Shown in pieces: positions 19,988-59,962 of a stretch of DNA of 64,000 nt. Under the pieces are notes generated by a model. The model was given only the letters and a program-made list of their open reading frames with translations, did no database searches and was not told where the DNA came from. The stretch spans positions 12,152,001 through 12,216,000 of the forward strand of contig CM069164.1 of NCBI GenBank assembly GCA_035221665.1. The letters run 5' to 3'. Positions within the stretch are counted from its first letter, which is position 1. Every line of letters starts with the position of its first letter. Position numbers and translations under genes: made by a program. The DNA comes from Okamejei kenojei. Lineage: Eukaryota.

Positions 19988-20178
19988 TTGGAGTAATTCA
20001 GCGGGACAGGCAACATCTCTGGAGAGATGGGCGAAGTTTCGGGTCAAGACTTCTTCAGACTGAAAACGAAACGTCGCCCATTCCTTCTCTCCAGAGATGC
20101 TGTCTGTCCCGCTGAGTTAATCCAGCATTTTGTGTCTACCTTCGATTTAAACCAGCATCTGCAGTTCTTTCCTACACA
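19988..20178. repeat. Penelope pLTR-derived inverted (tail-to-tail) repeat
   Basis: gagtaattcagcgggacaggcaacatctctggagag is the reverse complement of ctctccagagatgctgtctgtcccgctgagttaatc. Confidence 0.75.
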
Positions 20179-20814
20179 TCATTATTATTTGGTCCTTTCT
20201 TAAGCTAATTACATACTGTACAGTAGATTTCCAGTTATTATATACATATTTAAGCTTCTTAATTTTCTCCTAAAGCTGGTTGTGTCCAGTGAAATTATGC
20301 ACTGGATGTGGCTACATAAGTTTGACACACTTATTGGATTAGTTATTGGTACTTAGATGTCAGACACTGGCAAAAGGAACAATTTGAGGTAATTGAGGGA
20401 ATCAAACAAAAATGGTTTTAGGACAACTTTAAATAGATTGATTGAACTATTTTTTTTCTGGATTGGGTTACTGGTTCCAATGAATCAAATAAATCTGCTG
20501 GCAAAAGTAACTTAAACATACAATTATGGATCCCAGTGGATTATGTTTACACTTCCTCTCTGGGGCATCTTTAAGCATGTACCTGTGAGGATAAGAGACA
20601 ATGATGGCAAGTTTTGGGATGAGATATTGTAAATTCAGTGAAAAACAAAAAGGAAGCACATGTAAAAATTAGGATGCTGAAATCAGACAATTCCTTGAGG
20701 AATATAAAGGAAGCAGGAAAAAAACTTAAAGAATAAATTAGGGGAGCTACAAAGAGGCCAGAAAATGTCCTTAAAAGATAAGATTAAGGAGAATCTTAAG
20801 GAATTAAATATGTA

Positions 20815-22688
20815 CAGTGCCTTCCATAATGTTTGGGACAAAGACTCATCATTTATTTATTTGCCTCTGTACTCAACAATTTGACATTTATAATTAAAAA
20901 AAAATCACATGTGGTTAACGTGCACATTGTCAGATTTTATTAAAGGGTATTTGTATACATTTTGGTTTCACCATGTAGAAATTACAGCTGTGTTTATACA
21001 TCGTCCCCCCATTTCAGGGCACCATAATGTTTGGGATGCATGGCTTCACAGGCGTTTGTAATTGCTCAGGTGTGTTTAATTGCCTCCTTAATGCAGGAAT
21101 AAGAGAGCTCTCAGCACCTAGTTTTTCCTCCAGTCTATCACCTTTGGAAACTTTTAATAGCTGTTTATCAACATGAGGACCAAAGTTGTGCCAATGAAAG
21201 TCAAAGAGCCATTCTGAGACTGAGAAACAAGAATAAAACTGTTGGAGACATCAGCCTAAACCTTAGGCCTACCTAAATCAACTGTTTGGAACATAATTAA
21301 CAAGCAAGAGAGCACTGGTGAGCTTACTAATCGCAAAGGGACTGGCAGGCCAAGGAAGACCTCCACAGCTGATGACAGACAAATTCGCTCTGTAATAAAG
21401 CAAAACCCACAAACACCTGTCTGAGTGATCAGAAACACTCTTCAGGAGTGGATTTGTCAATGACCGCTATCCGCAGAAGACTTCATGGAAAGAAATACAG
21501 AGGCTACACTGCAAGATGCAAACATAAGAAGTACTTAAAACAGCAAACACTGTTCTGGAAAAAGGTCTTGTGGACAGATGAGATGAAGATTAACTTATAT
21601 CAGAGTGATGGCAAGAGCAAAGTATAGCGGAGAGAAGGAACTGCCCAAGATCCAAGGCATACCACCTCATCTGTGAAACACGTTGGTGGGGGTGTTATGG
21701 CCTGAGCAAGGTACTAGTTCGCTTATCTTAATTGATGATACAACTGCTGATGGTAGTAGCATAATGAATTCTGAAGTGTATAGACACATCCTATGTGCCC
21801 AGGTTCAAACAAATGCCTCAAAACGCAATGGCTGGCAGTTCAGTCTACAGCAAGACAATGATCCCAAACATACTGTTAAAGCAACAAAGGAGTTTTTCAA
21901 AGCTAAAAATTAGTCAACTCTTGAGTGACCAAGTTAATCACCCGCTTGAGCATGTCTTTTATATGCTGAAGAGAAAACTGAAGGGGACGAGCCCCCAAAA
22001 CAAGCATAAGCTAAAGATGGCTGCAATACAGGCCTGGCAGAGCATCACCAGAGAAGACACCCAGCAACTGTTGATGTCCATGAATCGCAGACTTGAAGCA
22101 GTCATTGCATGCAAAGGATAAGTTCCAGAACAAGGGGTCACAGTCTAAGGATAAGGGATGAGGAAAACATTTTTCACACAGAGAGTGGTGAGTCTCTGGA
22201 ATTATCTGCCACGGAAGGTAGTTGAGGCCAGTTCATTGGCTATATTTAAGAGGGAGTTAGATGTGGCCCTTGTGGCTAAAGGGATCAGGGGGTATGGAGA
22301 GAAGGCAGGTACAGGATACTGAGTTGGATGATCAGCCATGATCATATTGAATGGCGGTGCAGGCTCGAAGGGCCGAATGGCCTACTCCTGCACCTATTTT
22401 CTATGTTTTTATGATATGCAACAAAATATGAAACATGACTACTTTCATTTACATTACATTGCTGTGTCCCAAACATGATGGTGCCCCTGGGGGGGGGGGG
22501 GGATATGTATAAACACGGCTGTAATTTCTACATGGTGAAACCAAAATGCATGAAAATATCCTCTAATAAAATCTGACAATGTGCACTTTAACCACATGTA
22601 ATTCTTTCTATTACAAATCTCAAATTGTGGAGTACAGAGGCAAATAAATAAATTATGGGTCTTTGTCCAAACATTATGGAGGGCACTG
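20815..22688 (+). mobile_element. Second copy of the same Tc1 family, TA TSD, decayed, carrying a LINE insert
   Basis: TA|cagtgccttccataatgtttgggaca ... tgtccaaacattatggagggcactg|TA. Transposase fragments WTDE, QQDNDPKHT and MLKRKLKGTSPQNKHKLKMAAIQAW. Confidence 0.93.
22121..22412 (+). mobile_element. CR1/HER1-type LINE 3' end inserted into the Tc1 transposase 3' end
   Basis: Typical 3' region (cacagagagtggtgagtctctggaa ... gggccgaatggcctactcctgcacctattttctatgtt) interrupts the Tc1 sequence aaaggata|tgcaac, with GATA duplicated. Confidence 0.85.
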
Positions 22689-23896
22689 TATATTAGGAGC
22701 AAGAAGGTAGATAGGAATAGGAAAATCTCCCTAAGGTTGGGGACGACAGAAATAGCGGTAGAGTTGTGGATATTGAGGAAGGTTCTCAAAGGATACAACA
22801 GGATATAGATCATTTGGAAAAAAGGATGGAGAAATGGGAGATGGCGGTTAATTCCGACAAGGATGAGGTGATTCATTTTGGGAGGTCAAATGTAAGGGGC
22901 AAGAATAGTCCTAAGACAGGACCCTTGGGGGCATTGATGTACAGAGGAATATTTGGATACAAGTCCACAACTCTATGAAACACAAGTAGATAGAGTGGCA
23001 TAAAGGGCATTCAATTTGTTTGTCTTTGTTGGTTCAAGCTTTGGGTATAAAAGCGTCAATACATGTTGCAAATGTAAAAAACTGATTTGGCCACATGTGG
23101 AGCACTGTGTACAGTTCTGATGCCACACTACAGGGAGAATGTGGAGACTTTGGACGGGTAGCAAAAGAGGTTTATCAGGTTTTTCCCTAGGATTGGAGTG
23201 TATTAGGTCAAAGGTTGGACAAATTGTGATCGTTTTTTCTAGAGTGTCAATGGCTGAGGGGCAAACTGATAAAGGTTTTTAACATTATGAGAGGGATACA
23301 TAGGATCTTTCTCCAAGGGTGGAAATGTAAAATTCTCATGGGCATATGTTTAAGGCGAGCGGGGGAAAGTTATAAAGAGATGTGTGAGAAAAGGGTTTTT
23401 TTTACACAAAGAGTGGTAAATTTCTGAAACATACCGTCAGGGGAGGTGGGAGAAGATATGATAGCAACAAATAAGAGGCATTTCGGCAGATAAGGGATTA
23501 TGAGGCAAGTTGATACAATAGTATCTGCATTTGTCAAATTATCTGCATTTGTCAATTTATTCTGAAAACATGTAACATTTGAAAAATAACAGAAGAATAA
23601 TTTGAGTTATCTTTAATGAGTAATCTGATAGCTAATATGCACACACTGTGATTTTTAAGTATCCACTTTTTGCTGAAGTATTTCCAGACAATTTTTGTCC
23701 ATCCTAGGAGATACTGAGGGGAGGGTATATGAAAAGGTTGTCAAGTGTAGTGTGATTGACCCCGTGGATATGGACTTTTCATAACATTTTAATAAAATTA
23801 TAGAGAACAATAATGGCAATCAAATTAACTGGATAGTAGCTGCATGCAAATGGAGAGAAAACAGGATTTCCATTTGGAATGATAGAGAGTATAAAA

Positions 23897-28294: not shown

Positions 28295-28500
28295 CTAGAG
28301 TAACAATCAATCTACTGAAGGAACTCATTGGATTGAGCAGCATCTGTGGGTAAAAAGGAATGGTCCATCAGGACCTGATGTTTGATCTCAACACAAAAAC
28401 ATTTAGCATTCCTTTCTAATCACAGATGCTGCTCAAACTGTTGAATTCCTGCAACAGATTGTTTGTTCTAGATTCCAGCATCCACAGTATCCTGTGTCTC
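28295..28500. repeat. Older Penelope-derived inverted repeat
   Basis: ttgagcagcatctgtg ... cacagatgctgctcaa arms, with the family 3' end ccagcatccacagt. Confidence 0.6.
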
Positions 28501-35836: not shown

Positions 35837-36874
35837 CTTTTAAATGTAGCCTCACCCATTCTTTTCCACCCACAAAACAAAATTATAATTAAAGATTAGA
35901 AAATAACATTTTTAAAGGGATCTGAGAGGCAACTTTTTCACACACAAGATAGGGGCATAAGAAGGAGCCACCTCTGGCATTCCGCATACGCACTATCCTC
36001 TGAAAAAGTTGCCCCTCAGGTCCCCTTTAAAATATTACCCTCTCAATTTTAATTATGATTTAGTTTTAAGGGTGTAAAACATAATAACTCTGTAAAAATA
36101 AGCAAACTTACAATACATTGGTAAATGATATGTACGTACAAAAAATTATGATAACAGATAGAATTTGCGGATGTGTATATACACACTATACAAAACATTT
36201 AATAAGAGAAAGAGAACTGGTAATAACAGTATGGTTTTGATTTGAATATATGGGAATAAGACACATTTCAAAACAGCACGGTTGTCTCTTTCCAACACCA
36301 TAAATAAGAATGAAACATCTGGGTGCCCAATCTGTAGGTTGAAGCAAGACAGACATCTGCGGGAGCAAACACGATTCCTACTCAGTCTGAACAAGGATGG
36401 AGGCTGAGGATGTATAGTCTTGTAAAATAATGATTTATTTGTTATTAATCTCTATTGTATTCCTTTCCTGGGTCACTGGCTTGCAAATTTAAAAGTGTTA
36501 CAAGTGCACAAGGAAGCTGACAAATTTGCAGATAAAAAAACAGATTTCATCAGCGACTGCATTATCTTCAATGTTGAGCAATGAAAGCTGTAGAATCGAG
36601 AAAAATACACAACCTGTATTTTTAAAATCTGGATGCCCACACAGCATGTCTCTGCAAATTAGTTATGTATTTAGCACAGGCTGATTGCATTCTTTCCCGC
36701 ACTTATATATAACTATTAAATTTCACTTGTAAAAGTAGCATACAGAGTTAGAAAATAAATTGAAACAATGTATTCTGTGATTGCCTTAAGAAATACAATA
36801 CTGTCCAATTTATACAGGCATTATTGGGAAAGGCTTTGTTCTGTAACACTTGTAACATCAGTGGATTTACTCAC

Positions 36875-37884: not shown

Positions 37885-37970
37885 ACACAAAATGCTGGAG
37901 TAATTCAGCGGGTCAGGCAACATCTCTGGAAATGCTGCCTGATCCACTGAGTTACTCCAGCAATGTGTGT
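37885..37970. repeat. Penelope-derived 86-nt hairpin
   Basis: 39-nt arms with 33/39 Watson-Crick matches and an 8-nt loop. Confidence 0.8.
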
Positions 37971-47826: not shown

Positions 47827-48430
47827 TGGGCCTGTCCCACTTAGGCGACTGCAGGATCCTATGCAGTCGCCATGTGGTCGCTACTCTCCATGGCGGCTTC
47901 ATTATGGTCGTCACTAATTTTTCAACATGTTGAAACGTTTGCGACAACCATAATGAGGCCGTGACTAGTTCCCAGAATGTGGGAACTCCTCACACCATGA
48001 AGGCGACTCCCCGGAAACCACCTGTGGCAACCATGTGGTGACTGCATATTCTCCTGCAGTCGCCTAAAAAGTCGCCTAAGTCGGAATGTTGAAAAATTAG
48101 CGGCGCCCAGAATGAAGCCACCATGGAGAATAGGAAGAATTCTCATGCCGTAGGTGGGTCGCCAGGAGGTCCTAGTGGGTTGCCAGGAGGTTGAAGGTTC
48201 TCGTAGGTTGTAGCCGGTGCTGACCGGTGAATTTCATAGGTTCACTGGGGAAAAAAAACGTAAGCAGTAGTTTTCAGAACCAAGGATAACCGACCGGTAA
48301 TATTAAATGTCCGCCGAGCTTCACAGCCGTGTATCTCTGGCTGCATTCTGTTGCACTCTGACAGTCGCCGTTCCAGCTGCCGGTTTTTCAGGTTTTTCAC
48401 CTGAAAAATAGCCTAAGTGGGACAGGCCCA
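47827..48430. mobile_element. PIF/Harbinger-type MITE (604 bp, composite)
   Basis: 20-bp TIR tgggcctgtcccacttaggc; flanks GTA and TTA; CpG-rich interior. Confidence 0.85.
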
Positions 48431-49060: not shown

Positions 49061-51327
49061 GGAGAGACAAGTGACTGAAGAATAAGGCAAGAAAATAGGA
49101 CATTTGTTGTACCTATGGGAAAAGTCCCTGTTTACATAATAGCCTTTTCTTGTACAAAACTTCAACTGTTCTGTTTAAAAAATAAAATTCCATGATGCAA
49201 TCTCGGGATAATTTAACCTTATAAATCAGAATATACAATTATAATTTGTTAAGATCTATTAGGCATAAGGAACCCACCAGAAGCTGTCTGATGTCCGCAC
49301 CATAATGGCCAAATACTAGTTTAGAAGGTGTTTCATAAACCACCATGCTTTGGAACACTGTTTTTGAAATTCTACTGAACTGTGTAAAATAAGAAAATAT
49401 TTTAGAGCTGTACTAAATGGATAGTTTAGTTGTCTCTACCAGACAGTAGCAAAGTCTACAAAAGTATCAGAGTTAAAAAGTGTTATATTGGACGATACGT
49501 TTCATGGTCACTGGGGATTTTCTGACCTTACTTTGTTTGCCACGGTGGTCAGAGGAGAATTTCCCAAGTTCCTTGCTCTCCTGAACTGATATTATAAAAA
49601 TTTGTTTCTCTACTTATCTCGAGAGATTATATGCCTGCTGGTATTGGGAGTTAAAGGGATAATGATGTCTAATTGCAAAATGACTGCATAAGACCAGCAC
49701 GGTGGACCAGTTACTTTGCTCTTGTCCGTCACATATTTACATTCAATTGCACATCACATTGGTGTTACGTTCTTGCATAAAGTAAATTTCTGCAGTACTT
49801 TGTGACATGCTGTGAAAAATGGAGCTGGAACTGCAGAACAGACTGTGCATACCATGATAAATGTAATTCTGCAATGCAAAGCAGATGGAAATTTACTGAC
49901 ATTTATTAATAAATTCCCAAAACAGTACACTGGAAATAGAATGCAACGGGAGAAGATTGGAACATTTCTTGGTATGTTCTAAAATAGCTGGCTAGCTATT
50001 GTCTGTGGTGGCTATGTCTACCTATATCTAGCTATGTCTGAGGTAGCTGTCTAAAATAAACAAAATAGGCAACTAAATGGAAATCATACAATTCAGATCA
50101 AAAATGAAAAATCTTTATTTCCTACTGTTATAAAATAAAAAAAAATAGAAGTACAAATAAGATTGACTGTAAATTTTAAATATATTAAGAATGTATGTGA
50201 CGATAATATTTTCTTTTTGTATTGCTTTGATTTTATATTTCTTCTTAATATGTAATTACTTCTAATAAAAATATTTTACACAAAAATGAAAAAAACTTGG
50301 TTTATGTTGCATAACCCCCTATTCCCCAAAGCATTTTAGTCAATGAAGCAGTTTGAAAAAGTAGGCACCAAAGTATTCACATGTTAAAAACTGCCAAAAA
50401 CACATGTGGTTTAAAAGTAAAATTCTCTCTGGATTAAAGTACCCTGAATTTATTGGGTTAAAGGAGAATGAATTGTAATATTTAATCATGGGAAAGTTTA
50501 TAAAAGCCAAGTGACCATGACTAAGACGTAATTTTATTCCCCTAACACTGTAACTAAAATTAAGCGATAGTTATCTCCAATCCCTCCTTCTTTCTCAGTA
50601 TTAAATACTTCCAATGCATTAGTGGAATAATGTATGATGATAGGTTTAATTGATCAAATGTTTGCAAAAACTAGTATATCCATCTTTCCAAACAATTCCT
50701 ATGTCAAATTATGATGTAGAGACACACAAAAATGTGTACTCTTCACATGAAACAACAAAAGATTTTTCAGCATGGAAGCATTCCTTTGAGAACAAATAGT
50801 AAGTGTGGGTGTTAATACTCCACAAGTGAAGTCGACTCCTATCTACGTATTCTTTGCTTTACAGCACATTTTCTATTTCACAATCTCTCCTGCATTTGTC
50901 AGTTTTTCTTTTGTAAGTGCCAAACCCATTTACCTCAACCATTTCCTGTGGTAGGAAATTAGTTTACAACCCCTCTCACAAAACAAATGTATCCTTATTT
51001 CCCTAATGGATTTATTAGTAATTACCAATGTATTTCTCTGCCCGATGATATTCCTCAATGTATTTCTCTCCAGAATTTAGATTCTCCCAGAACTGAAAAT
51101 ATTCTCTAAATTTCGCCATTCAAAATTTTATGACAAGCTTTTTTTCCCCTTTTTCTATCCCAAATGTATTAATAACCTATTGGAGGTCAGTCTCTTATTG
51201 TACCGATTTTGCAATCTTTCTTTTGTTAAAAAAAATGAGGTAGAATAGGTATTTTATACTTTACGCATTTCACTGCAAGTTTATGTTGCTCATCCTATTC
51301 CTTCCCCTCATTTCCCTTTGTTGTGTA

Positions 51328-52945
51328 CAGTGGCTTGCAAAAGTATTCATACCCCTTGAATTTTTCCACATTTTGTCATGTCACAACCACAAACGTAAAT
51401 GTATTTGTTTGGGATTTTATGTGATAGACCAACATAAAGTGGTGCATAATTGAGAAGTGGAAGGGAAATGATACATGGTTTCCAAATTTTATTACAAATA
51501 ATAAACTGAAAAGTGTGGCGTGCAAAGGTATTCAGCCCCCTGATTCAATAATATGTAGAACCACCTTTTGCTGCAATTACAGCTGCAAGTCTTTTGGGGT
51601 ATGTCTCTACCAGCTTTGCACATCTAGAGACTGAAATTTCTGCCCATTCTTCTTTGCAAAATAGCTCAAGCTCAGTCAGATTGGATGGAGAGCATCTGTG
51701 AACAGCAATTTACAAGTCTTGCCAGAGATTCTCAATTGGATTTAGGTCTGGACTTTGACTGGGCCATTCTAACACATGAATATGCTTTGATCTAAACCAT
51801 TCCATTGTAGCTCTGGCTGTATGTTTAGGGTCGTTGGCCTGCTGGAAGGTGAATCTCCGCCCCAGTCTCAAGTCTTTTGCAGACTTTAACAGGTTTTCTT
51901 CCAAGATTGCCTTGTATTTGGCTCCATCCATCTTCCCATCAACCCTGACCAGCTTCCCTGTCCCTGCTGAAGAAAAGCATCCCCACAGCATGATGCCGCC
52001 ACCACCATTTTTCACAGTGGGGATGGTGTGTTCAGGGTGATGTGCAGTGTTAGTTTTTGCCACACATAGCGTTTTCCATTTAGGCCAAAAACTTCATGTT
52101 TGGTCTCACCAGACCAGAGCACCTTCCTCCACATGTTTGCTGTGTCTCCCACATGGCTTGTGGCAAATTGCAAATGGGACTTCTTATGGCTTTGTTTCAA
52201 CAATGGCTTTCTTCATGCCACTCTTCCATAAAGGACTGATTTGTGGAGTGCACGACAAATAGTTGTTCTGTGGACAGATTCTCCCACCTGAGCTGTGGAT
52301 CTCTGCAGCTCCTCCAGAATTACCATGGGCCTCTTGGCTGCTTCTCTGATCAATGCTCTCCTTGCCCGGCCTGTCAGTTTAGGTGGACGGCCATGTCTTG
52401 GTAGGTTTGCAGTTGTGCCATACTCTTTCCATTTTCGGATGATGGATTGAACAGTGCTCCGTGAGATGTTCAAAGCTTGGGATATTATTTTATAACCTAA
52501 CCCTGCTTTAAACATTCTCCACAACTTTATCCCTGACCTGTCTGGTGTGTTCCTTGGGCTTCATGATGCTGTTTGTTCAATAATGTTCTCTAACAAACCT
52601 CTGAGGCCTTCACAGAACAGCTGTATTTATACTGAGATTAGATTACGCACAAGTGGACTCTATTTACTAATTAGGTGACTTCTGAAGGCAATTGGTTGCA
52701 CTGGATTTTATTTAGGGGTATCAGAGTAAAGGGGGCTGAATACTTTTGCACGCCACACTTTCAGTTTTTTATTTGTAAAAAAATTTGAAAACCATGTATC
52801 ATTTTCCTTCCACTTCACAATTATGCGCCACTTTGTATTGGTCTATCACATAAAATCCCAATAAAAAAATACATTTACGTTTGTGGTTGTAACGTGACAA
52901 AATGTGGAAAAGTTCAAGGGGTATGAATACTTTTGCAAGCCACTG
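51328..52945 (-). mobile_element. Passport-like Tc1 transposon, full length (1618 bp), TA TSD
   Basis: TA|cagtggcttgcaaaagtattcataccccttga ... tcaaggggtatgaatacttttgcaagccactg|TA. TIRs of ~215 bp with inner DR gcaaaagtattcagcccc. Confidence 0.93.
51545..52564 (-). pseudogene. Disrupted Passport-like DD34E transposase
   Basis: MKPKEHTRQVRDKVV ... IIRKWKEYGTTANLPRHGRPPKL ... WSGETK ... [16 protein letters not shown] ... FQQANDPKH ... [15 protein letters not shown] ... AAKGGSTYY*. Contains frameshifts and stops, and both catalytic Asp positions are altered (SGE, QAN). Confidence 0.9.
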
Positions 52946-53639
52946 TATGTGTCTATAGAACAGTTTATGTACAAAATTCCGTGATAATTTAATTTTGCAA
53001 TTCCTGTTTACCCATGCAATGATATTTTTTAAACGTTTTTACTAAGTTTCTTGTATCTATTATGTCTTTTCCCTCAGATGTAACATTTTCCAATGTTTTG
53101 TTCTTTGACGTGTCACTGTAGATCTGATCTTACTGTATTGGGATCAATGATACAAAGATGCTCTTCTACTCTTCTTACAGGATAAGTGATTCTTCGTAGA
53201 CTTCCTATATCTTTGAGCAACAAATCATGGTCCAAGTATGCAAATTAGCAGAAAATTAGATATGTTTTTTTTATATAGCCCAAAAAAACAATGAAAGGAT
53301 TGAATAGGTAGCCAGAGAATTTAAGATAACTCCTCTTCTGGTGTCACAGATTTTTTAAATACATGAATATTTAAAGTTTATAGATTTGTGTGAGAAAATA
53401 AAATCCACTATTCTAACATTTGCTAATTACATAAAGGGGAATTGTATTGTTAAAACATTCCTATTACTATAATTAGTACAATAAGAAGTGATCAGTGAAA
53501 ATGCTCCTGCTTGTTTAGGAAATATTGTATGTGCACTAAATGTTATTTACTAAATATGTAACTTGAACAAAAATTGTTTTGTTTGATTACTTCAAATGTT
53601 CAGTTTTCGTTGTAATAATATTGAGGTTACTAAGTAAAA

Positions 53640-58056: not shown

Positions 58057-58624
58057 CTAAAGAAAATAATAACAAAGGGGAAAATATGTTAAATGAAGAT
58101 TATTACAATCAACTGTAAATTTCTTAATTAAATTGCTTTTGTATTCGTGACTAAGTGATATACTGGAGAACTCTATCTGGTTCAAGGTCAAGTATAACAG
58201 CCAATTACTTAAGGCTTAGGGATATTTAAAAAAACGACTATTTCCAATTTTAAATAATCAGTAATTAGGTCTTATGCTTCTAATCAAATACCAGCTAACA
58301 CATTTAAACAACAGAACTGACATTTTTGAAATATTTGTTTAAATGTAGTCATACTATTAAGAACTCACTGCTATACCATCATTTTTCTTGAATAAAGGCA
58401 CACCGAACACATAGGCTTGTTGCCAATCAACTAAGTCGTAATGGGCTACTGCAAAAGCACTCTTGTGTTTGATGAGATAGAACATTTCCACCAATAGAGG
58501 AATAAGTATGATAAAAGTGATCCATCAGGAAAGCAATTCCAAAGTATTTGGACAGTATGAAAAAAAACATTTATACTCCAGAACATACACCAAAGGGATT
58601 AAAAAAATAAACAGCTAGGTGGTC

Positions 58625-58769
58625 TCTTCTTCTTCTTCTTGCGTATGGCATGCACAGCCTAAAGTTGTAAGACAACTTGCTCTATTTGATCTTATTGGAT
58701 TGTGCACGCCGGGTTGATTGCATTTGTCGAAACAGGGCGGACCACGTGAAGGTTGCAATCTTCCACCCC
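58625..58769 (-). mobile_element. Short non-autonomous non-LTR retroposon (Ingi/Vingi- or RTE-type inferred) with a 5' ribozyme and (GAA)n tail
   Basis: Ends ...CCATACGC(AAG)5 on the minus strand. Flanked by an imperfect 13-bp direct repeat, cagctaggtggtc (58612-58624) and tagcttggtggac (58770-58782). No tRNA head. Confidence 0.65.
58716..58769 (-). ncRNA. Putative minimal HDV-like (CPEB3-type) self-cleaving ribozyme
   Basis: The minus strand reads GGGGUGG AA GAUUGCA ACC UUCACGU GGU CCGCCCU GU UUCGA CAAA UGCAAUC. This gives P1 of 7 bp with a G1.U wobble, a perfect 7-bp P2, a 3-bp P3, L3 UUCACGU, J1/4 GU and J4/2 CAAA, with P4 reduced to a UUCG loop. Helix order matches the HDV nested double pseudoknot. 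Confidence 0.75.
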
Positions 58770-59962
58770 TAGCTTGGTGGACAATCAACCTATTATCCGA
58801 GGAGGAAATTAATATATCATCATTAAAGAGGATACTGGTAGGGCAGTATCTTTTGAAGATGAAACCATGCTCAGATAAGCATCAATATCTGTGCAAAATC
58901 TAGTTTGATTACAACTCCAGTTTGGGAGGTAGCCCTAAGGAGCTATACCTGCAGATTGTGGCATCATCTGACAAATCATATGTCCAGCATTGGCCACTGC
59001 CTATGGAGTCATGCTGTAGACTCCATAGAATTATACTCTGGACCCGAGTATGCCCATGGTACCTTATAGCACAGAAGAAGTCAATGCCTCTGAAACAATA
59101 TTCCCAGCGTAGGCTGTGCTTGTAAAATCATAACACCAGTATGGATCCTGCGTCTGAAACTGCACTCCCAGTGGGGGAGTGGAACCATATCCCCAGCATC
59201 ATTGGTGCTACTGAAACCATAACCATTCACAGTGCCACTGGGTCTGCACTCGCAGTCATATTAAATCAATGCCTCACTGCAGGACAAAATGACCTAAATG
59301 ATTGGAAATGCTATGTAAAAAAAAAGTACCATTTATCTTTCTAGATGCCCAAAAATATAAACAACCAATGGATAAGTCCCAAATATTTAACTGTTTTGCA
59401 TGTTATTTAGCTGTCTATCCTGAACATAACACCTACAGGTATTCAATGAATATTGTTTAGATTTTGCACACCCAATGCAGAAATCCCACAACCCTAACTA
59501 ACCTATCGGCTTTGAATCCATTACAATCATGAAACCTTTTCTCAAGGCACCCACGAATCCTTTAAGCTATATTCCAAATTGAAATGTTGCCTATTTGCCA
59601 TCCAAGTAGGTTTCAGCTAATAGTTCAAGTGGCATAAAATCTAGCTATATTCACTGATAAGCTGCAGGGCTGCTGTGGATTTAGGTGTGGCAGATTATTG
59701 TTGAAAAAGTGAAACGGCATTTTTAGTAGCACATTGCAATACAGAATCTGTGGTTAGATTATTTTTCTCCGAAGCATTCCAATGCATTTGTGTCCTCGTT
59801 TTTTCGAGTTTTCATTTACATACCCTGACAGAAACGAACATATCATGAATGCTGCTAGATTTTGCACATGCCCAAGAGCTTACAACATAAGCATGAAACA
59901 ACACCCATGTTCATTCGAGGCCATATAAATATTCTGACGTTTAAAATAATCCTCAAACTCAC

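Follow-up and report, generated by a model that had tools for sequence, protein, structure and literature searches.

The window, i.e., the whole 64,000-nt stretch of DNA analysed here, carries on its minus strand a 145-nt element which is probably a non-autonomous offshoot of a Vingi-type LINE that arose by internal deletion, is released by a ribozyme, and is mobilized by the LINE. In it, the two ends of the LINE are joined and have been amplified as a unit, with target-site duplications (TSDs) of 10–14 bp, in at least two subfamilies, and with the 5′ end fixed at G1 of a predicted HDV-like ribozyme. An autonomous LINE with both termini, about 3.1 kb long and with a single ORF, was found in the same genome; the initial annotation of the window had supposed a bipartite derivative of an Ingi/Vingi- or RTE-like LINE, and while the Vingi-type partner bears out the former, an RTE origin is not favored.

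Architecture of the element

As initially annotated, the element starts exactly at the predicted cleavage site (58769) and runs down to 58625, terminating in (AAG)5, a tail also common to the LINE, and it is bracketed by a 13-bp direct repeat (Table 1); within the inner 11 bp of this repeat, identity is 9/11. Its build is tRNA-less and bipartite: nt 1 to ~77 of the LINE are followed by a linker of ~23 nt, the last ~29 nt of the LINE, and (AAG)n. The linker contains a short duplication of 5′UTR sequence and the 5′ arm of a 7-bp hairpin. A small-RNA (tRNA, 7SL, or 5S) SINE head with Pol III boxes was looked for in the element and not found; judged by consensus patterns, the element strand has no exact B box and no A box within one mismatch, and a tRNA scan of the 64-kb window found none. 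The CpGs noted earlier as retained number six.

Table 1. Positions of the element and its parts in the window
Feature	Position	Strand	Remark
Target-site duplication, 5′ copy	58770..58782	(−)	13 bp, 10/13 identical
Predicted HDV-like ribozyme, nt 1–54	58716..58769	(−)	descriptor match
P1, 7 bp	58763–58769 with 58734–58740	(−)	opens with a G1-U wobble
J1/2, 2 nt	58761–58762	(−)	
P2, 7 bp	58754–58760 with 58716–58722	(−)	
P3, 3 bp	58751–58753 with 58741–58743	(−)	
L3, 7 nt	58744–58750	(−)	
P1.1, single C-G pair	58748 with 58733	(−)	
P4 remnant, 1 bp and tetraloop	58727–58732	(−)	
Catalytic-position C, first of J4/2	58726	(−)	
Segment common with the 5′ end of the autonomous Vingi-type LINE (nt 1–~77)	58693..58769	(−)	
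10-bp stem, 5′ arm	58701..58710	(−)	in LINE 5′UTR, 6 nt beyond ribozyme
Middle segment without LINE counterpart	58670..58692	(−)	best matches at most 10 nt, 3 natural LINE copies
7-bp hairpin across the junction	58662..58678	(−)	short element only
Segment common with LINE 3′ end	58641..58669	(−)	last codons, stop codon, ~18-nt 3′UTR
LINE ORF stop codon inside element	58659–58661	(−)	
10-bp stem, 3′ arm	58647..58656	(−)	in LINE 3′UTR
(AAG)n tail	58625..58640	(−)	common with LINE
Target-site duplication, 3′ copy	58612..58624	(−)	

Both helices proposed by the initial annotation, the stem of 10 bp and the hairpin of 7 bp, are present in the MFE fold, and the 3′ 73 nt of the element have a folding z of −3.14 (0/200 shuffles equally good); the entire element (−1.01) and the isolated head (+1.77) score weakly, in keeping with a pseudoknot, a kind of fold outside the reach of ViennaRNA, which was used here. 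The 5′ arm of the 10-bp stem is LINE 5′UTR, and the stem is best read as a pairing of 5′UTR with 3′UTR. The LINE-derived 3′ part comprises the last ~29 nt and the tail only. The 3′ stem-loop had been assigned the role of recruiting the reverse transcriptase (RT) of the LINE, but the 5′ arm of the 7-bp hairpin is missing from the LINE; therefore, this hairpin is not an inherited RT-recognition signal and, judged from the alignment, arose in the miniature.

An empty orthologous site was not seen in sequencing-run contigs of the related organisms B, C, and D; the insertion is present in B, where both junctions are crossed, and probably in C, and is not bridged in D.

A family of short copies

The element belongs to a multicopy family, as had been suspected: a 20-mer from its 3′ end has 9,113 exact matches (4,495 + 4,618) in the 2.76 Gb of genome searched, the reversed pattern none. 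Given the per-site decay, less than half of the copies should match the 20-mer exactly and the family is therefore estimated at roughly 20,000 copies, a few hundred LINE ends counted in. A sample of 92 copies was chosen by the 3′ motif alone (the first 92 among 100 matches listed, all on contig C1, at 90 loci). The predicted pile-up of 5′ ends at G1 is evident in it, 86 of the 92 copies beginning within 6 nt (77 alignments start at nt 1 and nine at nt 2–6); six are 5′-truncated, at nt 8, 16, 17, 36, 84, and 109. TSDs, mostly 10–14 bp long, accompany 69/92 copies as compared to 5/92 with swapped flanks, and the base preceding G1 is T in 48 of the 86 full-length copies. These fall into two subfamilies (34/86 and 52/86), diverging at non-CpG sites by 4.5% and 4.1%, respectively, from their own majority sequence. 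Selection on individual copies was considered and rejected, as the core decays (121/3,496 sites, 3.5%) like the 3′ half (82/2,625, 3.1%). With non-CpG divergence of ~4%, and the sampled partner copies broken, the family seems to have ceased to be active.

In four sequencing runs, contigs depart from the element at 58769, and runs of three related organisms contain thousands of family-bearing contigs with loose ends concentrated at this position. Miniatures were also seen within their own partner LINE, in the same orientation (L233:1999-2137; L292:308-435).

The autonomous partner

In sequencing run X15 (assembled contigs, whose RNA origin is a guess), eight contigs leave the element at 58669 with one common alternative sequence, which reads in frame to the stop codon of the element. 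A LINE-specific 3′ motif has 423 genome matches with at most one mismatch, which are LINE 3′ ends, and two natural near-full-length copies of about 3.1 kb were obtained (L283, L285); this LINE family is called V1. Its ORF encodes APE and RT domains (Pfam) and a zinc knuckle of the pattern CxC...H...C at the C-terminus; the closest database protein, 1,019 aa long, is 69% identical, and an RNase H domain is listed for none of the best 120 database hits. This agrees with the description of Vingi as having a single ORF with APE and RT and being without RNase H (PMC13708176 and PMC3894237, both in part). In a 19-row RT tree, which contains no named Vingi, Ingi, or RTE protein, V1, the families V2–V4 described below, and database relatives stand apart (99/99) from the rows that resemble Nimb, CR1, and L2.

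A search with Pfam PF14529 and 20 follow-up regions yielded Nimb-, CR1-, and L2-like LINEs, none of them head-bearing; the Nimb-like LINE was rejected as partner since it has an (AAG)n end too, yet a different 3′ end. An abundant two-ORF LINE with an (AAG)n tail was observed repeatedly (L061-L090, L121, L136; an open frame of 1,276 aa in L072), which we take to be Nimb/I-like with an RNase H-like region.

The predicted ribozyme

HDV-like ribozymes are defined by a nested double pseudoknot with the cleavage site at the first nucleotide of P1 (PMC4908430, in part), and this is the arrangement (P1, P2, P3, P1.1, cleavage at the first nucleotide of P1) which an HDV-topology descriptor finds at the head of the element. 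The descriptor, built from general HDV features and after the element had been inspected, gave one match in 128 kb (the window, two strands), exactly at 58769, and none in a Markov-1 null of 5 Mb; every core pair is intact in the window copy. No HDV-family match was obtained in a scan with Rfam 15 at E ≤ 5. The family varies widely in primary sequence, and the catalytic C is the first position of J4/2 (PMC10879173).

This C (C44) is kept in 79/86 full-length copies and recurs in family V4 and its miniature (see below), and the core is intact in 32/86 by the strict and in 43/86 by a relaxed descriptor. At nt 32, 18 of 19 LINE heads have A and 70 of 86 miniatures G, a change from U-A to U-G with pairing kept; subfamily differences at nt 8 and nt 45 fall in the unpaired J1/2 and J4/2. 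Changes between LINE and miniature, and between subfamilies, avoid breakage of pairs, and what supports the HDV-like fold is the comparison between lineages, individual copies decaying neutrally; upkeep of the fold presumably operates in the source lineage. The heads of V1 and V4 differ in P1, P2, L3, and P4 with pairing preserved according to the descriptor, and families of divergent sequence retain the catalytic-position C, the G1-U pair, and L3. By eye, Vingi-2_Gav (5′ end as given in the PMC5786205 supplement, in part) has the same fold and the same L3. In another HDV-like scaffold a J1/2 of 1 nt left little activity and one of 3–7 nt more (PMC4908430, in part); by analogy, cleavage here may be slow because J1/2 has 2 nt only. 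The near-minimal 54-nt head is, as modelled, a natural eukaryotic candidate HDV-like ribozyme.

Further Vingi-like families and a second miniature

A protein search of the genome revealed four further Vingi-like families, V2 (L304, L318), V3 (L307, L316, L317), V4 (L306:144-3360, L310, L320, L321), and V5 (L313). V4 is very young (copies 98.6–99.3% identical), and its head (L306) passes the descriptor with P1, P2, and L3 different from those of V1 and with a real P4. The heads of V2 and V3 fail the descriptor; by eye, that of V3 fits except at the P1.1 G and has a long P4 region, that of V2 fits in P1, P3, and L3 only, P2 and J4/2 not being clear, and that of V5 is degraded. Related to V4 is a miniature of ~195 nt with its own TSDs and an (AAG)n tail (L370-L377, e.g., L371:34-240 on the plus strand); seven of eight copies pass the descriptor, with a compensatory pair change in P4, and a query with its head gave 1,043 first-look candidates. 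It is a second, independent short element headed by a predicted ribozyme.

Inverted heads and a possible pairing of the LINE ends

Of 47 V1 LINE copies selected for their 3′ end, ten have an inverted piece that lies at the truncation point or close to it, and in seven of the ten this piece is the 5′ head. The outer ends of five of these inverted heads lie at nt 61, 72, 76, 76, and 80, with 2–2.7 kb missing; under uniform breakpoints about 0.07 of 10 would be expected in such a 20-nt window. For V4, inverted heads on truncated bodies were found in 6/9 partial-head copies checked, in a non-random sample of listed matches that covered a 117-nt query in part, and they end at nt 84, 89, 90, 90, 91, and 104. 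Most of the ends in both families fall 3–15 nt beyond a short arm (V1 nt 62–69, V4 nt 71–77), which is complementary to the tail-adjacent 3′UTR. Head-to-head fusions with 5′-truncated LINE bodies were observed at L205, L206, L222, L229, L238, L250, and L251, and further at L378, L380-L382, L384, and L385, with clustered outer ends; at L386, nt 1–59 are joined to nt 2972 of V4.

A lone 95-nt V4 derivative with a TSD (L383:263-365) has nt 1–76 joined to the last 19 nt, so that its junction links the two arms; the end pairing is retained in the V4-related miniature. In a duplex test, the 50 nt following the ribozyme were matched against the last 20, 25, or 30 nt, with windows of the element body as control: p was 0.017 for V4, 0.07–0.20 for V3, and 0.72–0.88 for V2 (0.03–0.065 by Fisher over the three), and 0.02–0.10 for V1, the source of the pairing idea. 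Formal support for end pairing from these sequences is marginal. It is possible, although we put it at rather less than even, that Vingi-type RNA loops by pairing of the 5′ arm with the 3′UTR and that the helix governs both integration and the birth of miniatures. An arm of 7–10 nt just past the 5′ ribozyme would pair with the tail-adjacent 3′UTR, closing the loop and keeping the 5′ end at the insertion site; the sequence behind the arm would become a hot spot of priming at the second nick, giving inverted heads on truncated copies, and the RT might jump from arm to arm, giving bipartite miniatures. Protein binding to a 5′ structure, described for R2 (PMC6765202, in part), could yield inversions without base pairing, and miniature RNAs could be the source of some of the inverted heads of V1, although the sequence of these heads follows the LINE type. 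If true, the end helix would explain why few LINE clades yield derivatives with internal deletions, which PMC5786205 (in part) leaves unanswered, and would offer a rule for designing gene-writing templates based on Vingi.

Origin and mobilization

A sense copy within a read-through transcript would cut itself 5′ of G1 by means of its HDV-like ribozyme; the LINE protein would bind the terminal sequence of the short RNA and nick the target, most often one ending in T, and priming in the tail would be followed by copying of the RNA up to G1. That the V1 protein mobilizes the short element in trans seems very likely, and release from read-through transcripts by self-cleavage likely. An internal Pol II promoter within the first ~77 nt, like Pr77 of L1Tc/NARTc, might instead define the 5′ end, the origin of the element being unchanged and the ribozyme fold being slow, secondary, or chiefly a protein-binding structure. 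A promoter starting at +1 would lead to an identical 5′ pile-up and an RNA of 135 nt is easily copied in full, both of which weaken the case for a ribozyme-set end; the head of the related L1Tc is promoter and ribozyme both (PMC3383444, in part), the common 5′ segment is here likewise ~77 nt, and J1/2 and P4 are very short. We nevertheless regard the promoter as the unlikely option, since the element ends exactly on G1 of the fold and since the catalytic-position C, G1-U, and L3 are conserved across sequence-divergent families; the two roles are not mutually exclusive.

The C-terminal CxC...H...C knuckle of the partner speaks against its belonging to RTE or another single-ORF clade rather than to Vingi, which we consider very improbable; RTE elements are not known to have this knuckle. 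The ORF of ~1,000 aa and the length of 3.1 kb, compared to 3,128 bp for Vingi-2_Gav (PMC5786205, in part), as well as the resemblance of the head to that of Vingi-2_Gav, point the same way, even though RTE elements also have a single ORF, are RNase H-less, and are a source of bipartite derivatives (PMC5786205, in part), and named Vingi and RTE proteins are absent from the tree. Scarcely credible is a chance reading of the HDV-like fold in an ordinary SINE-like repeat: Rfam has no match and thermodynamic folding does not favor the fold, but the descriptor is silent on the null sequence, matches exactly at the element boundary, and is accompanied by covariation across families.

Further searches and other repeats

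Among the 36 + 68 open frames of the window, Pfam revealed no host exon; a sub-threshold match to HlyIII (PAQR-like; 2247–2621, plus strand, E 0.0013) may be an exon or chance. Tc1/mariner-type transposon copies, in which long inverted repeats and pieces of a transposase are seen, lie at 7071–8709, 20810–22693, and 51326–52947, and self-comparison of the window revealed local inverted repeats of 70–220 bp at 19989–20124, 28302–28467, 35862–36079, 37885–37970, and 47894–47961. Viral contigs gave no motif match and no relative; a motif scan of metagenomes gave two matches, to the 20-mer only, which were taken as chance. The scan of prokaryote genomes turned up 47 loci, fragmentary and contaminant-like; both ends were present in none of them, and none passed the descriptor. 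Vingi-like RT fragments in prokaryote genome bins (L323-L326, L339; 37–47% identity to P0001) are probably eukaryotic contamination.

Relation to known systems

Ribozyme-headed, internally deleted elements are already known as a kind (R2 SIDEs, NARTc), and the skate family is one more ribozyme-headed SIDE, very abundant and in a large genome with dispersed repeats, about one-third of its copies still having an intact predicted core. Possibly new are the predicted HDV-like ribozymes on Vingi 5′ ends, which would extend such heads to Vingi-type LINEs, and the putative end-to-end helix, next to which the inverted heads on truncated LINE copies have their ends; a literature search found the family, Vingi ribozymes, and end pairing not described, although Dfam, Repbase, or patents may contain them. 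The miniature delimits the smallest cis sequences needed by the Vingi protein, 77 + 29 nt. Kojima et al. 2011 is reportedly the source cited for non-autonomous, internally deleted derivatives of Vingi-1_EE. Like the skate element, these combine the 5′ and 3′ termini of a Vingi-type LINE that has a single ORF and no RNase H, and are without an ORF and without a tRNA head (PMC5786205, in part); family and host are different. The same source, in the part seen, lists R1, R2, R4, RTE, Ingi, plus LOA as clades with ribozymes, Vingi being absent from this list, and reports bipartite non-autonomous LINEs for RTE, Ingi, Vingi, and R2 (PMC5786205). Vingi is under development for the insertion of genes by means of donor RNAs lying between its two UTRs (PMC13708176, in part).

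R2 SIDEs and R2/R1 SIDEs likewise combine an HDV-like head with a LINE 3′ end and are mobilized in trans, the model for R2 SIDEs being co-transcription and self-cleavage; they are rare, rDNA-specific, and have a large ribozyme (PMC3414825, in part), whereas the present element is dispersed, has ~20,000 copies, an APE-type partner, and a predicted core of 54 nt. NARTc, RIME, and SIDER of trypanosomatids, from the sister clade Ingi/L1Tc, are dispersed short deleted derivatives with a ribozyme head of ~77 nt (PMC4035085, in part); there, the partner has RNase H and ribozyme activity is demonstrated, while the skate ribozyme, compared by description, is a predicted one. Minimal HDV-like or theta ribozymes likewise have no real P4, a short J1/2, and C as the first position of J4/2, but stem from metagenomes and phages, where they often lie beside tRNAs (PMC10879173); the head described here, by contrast, belongs to a multicopy retroposon in a eukaryotic genome of 2.76 Gb.
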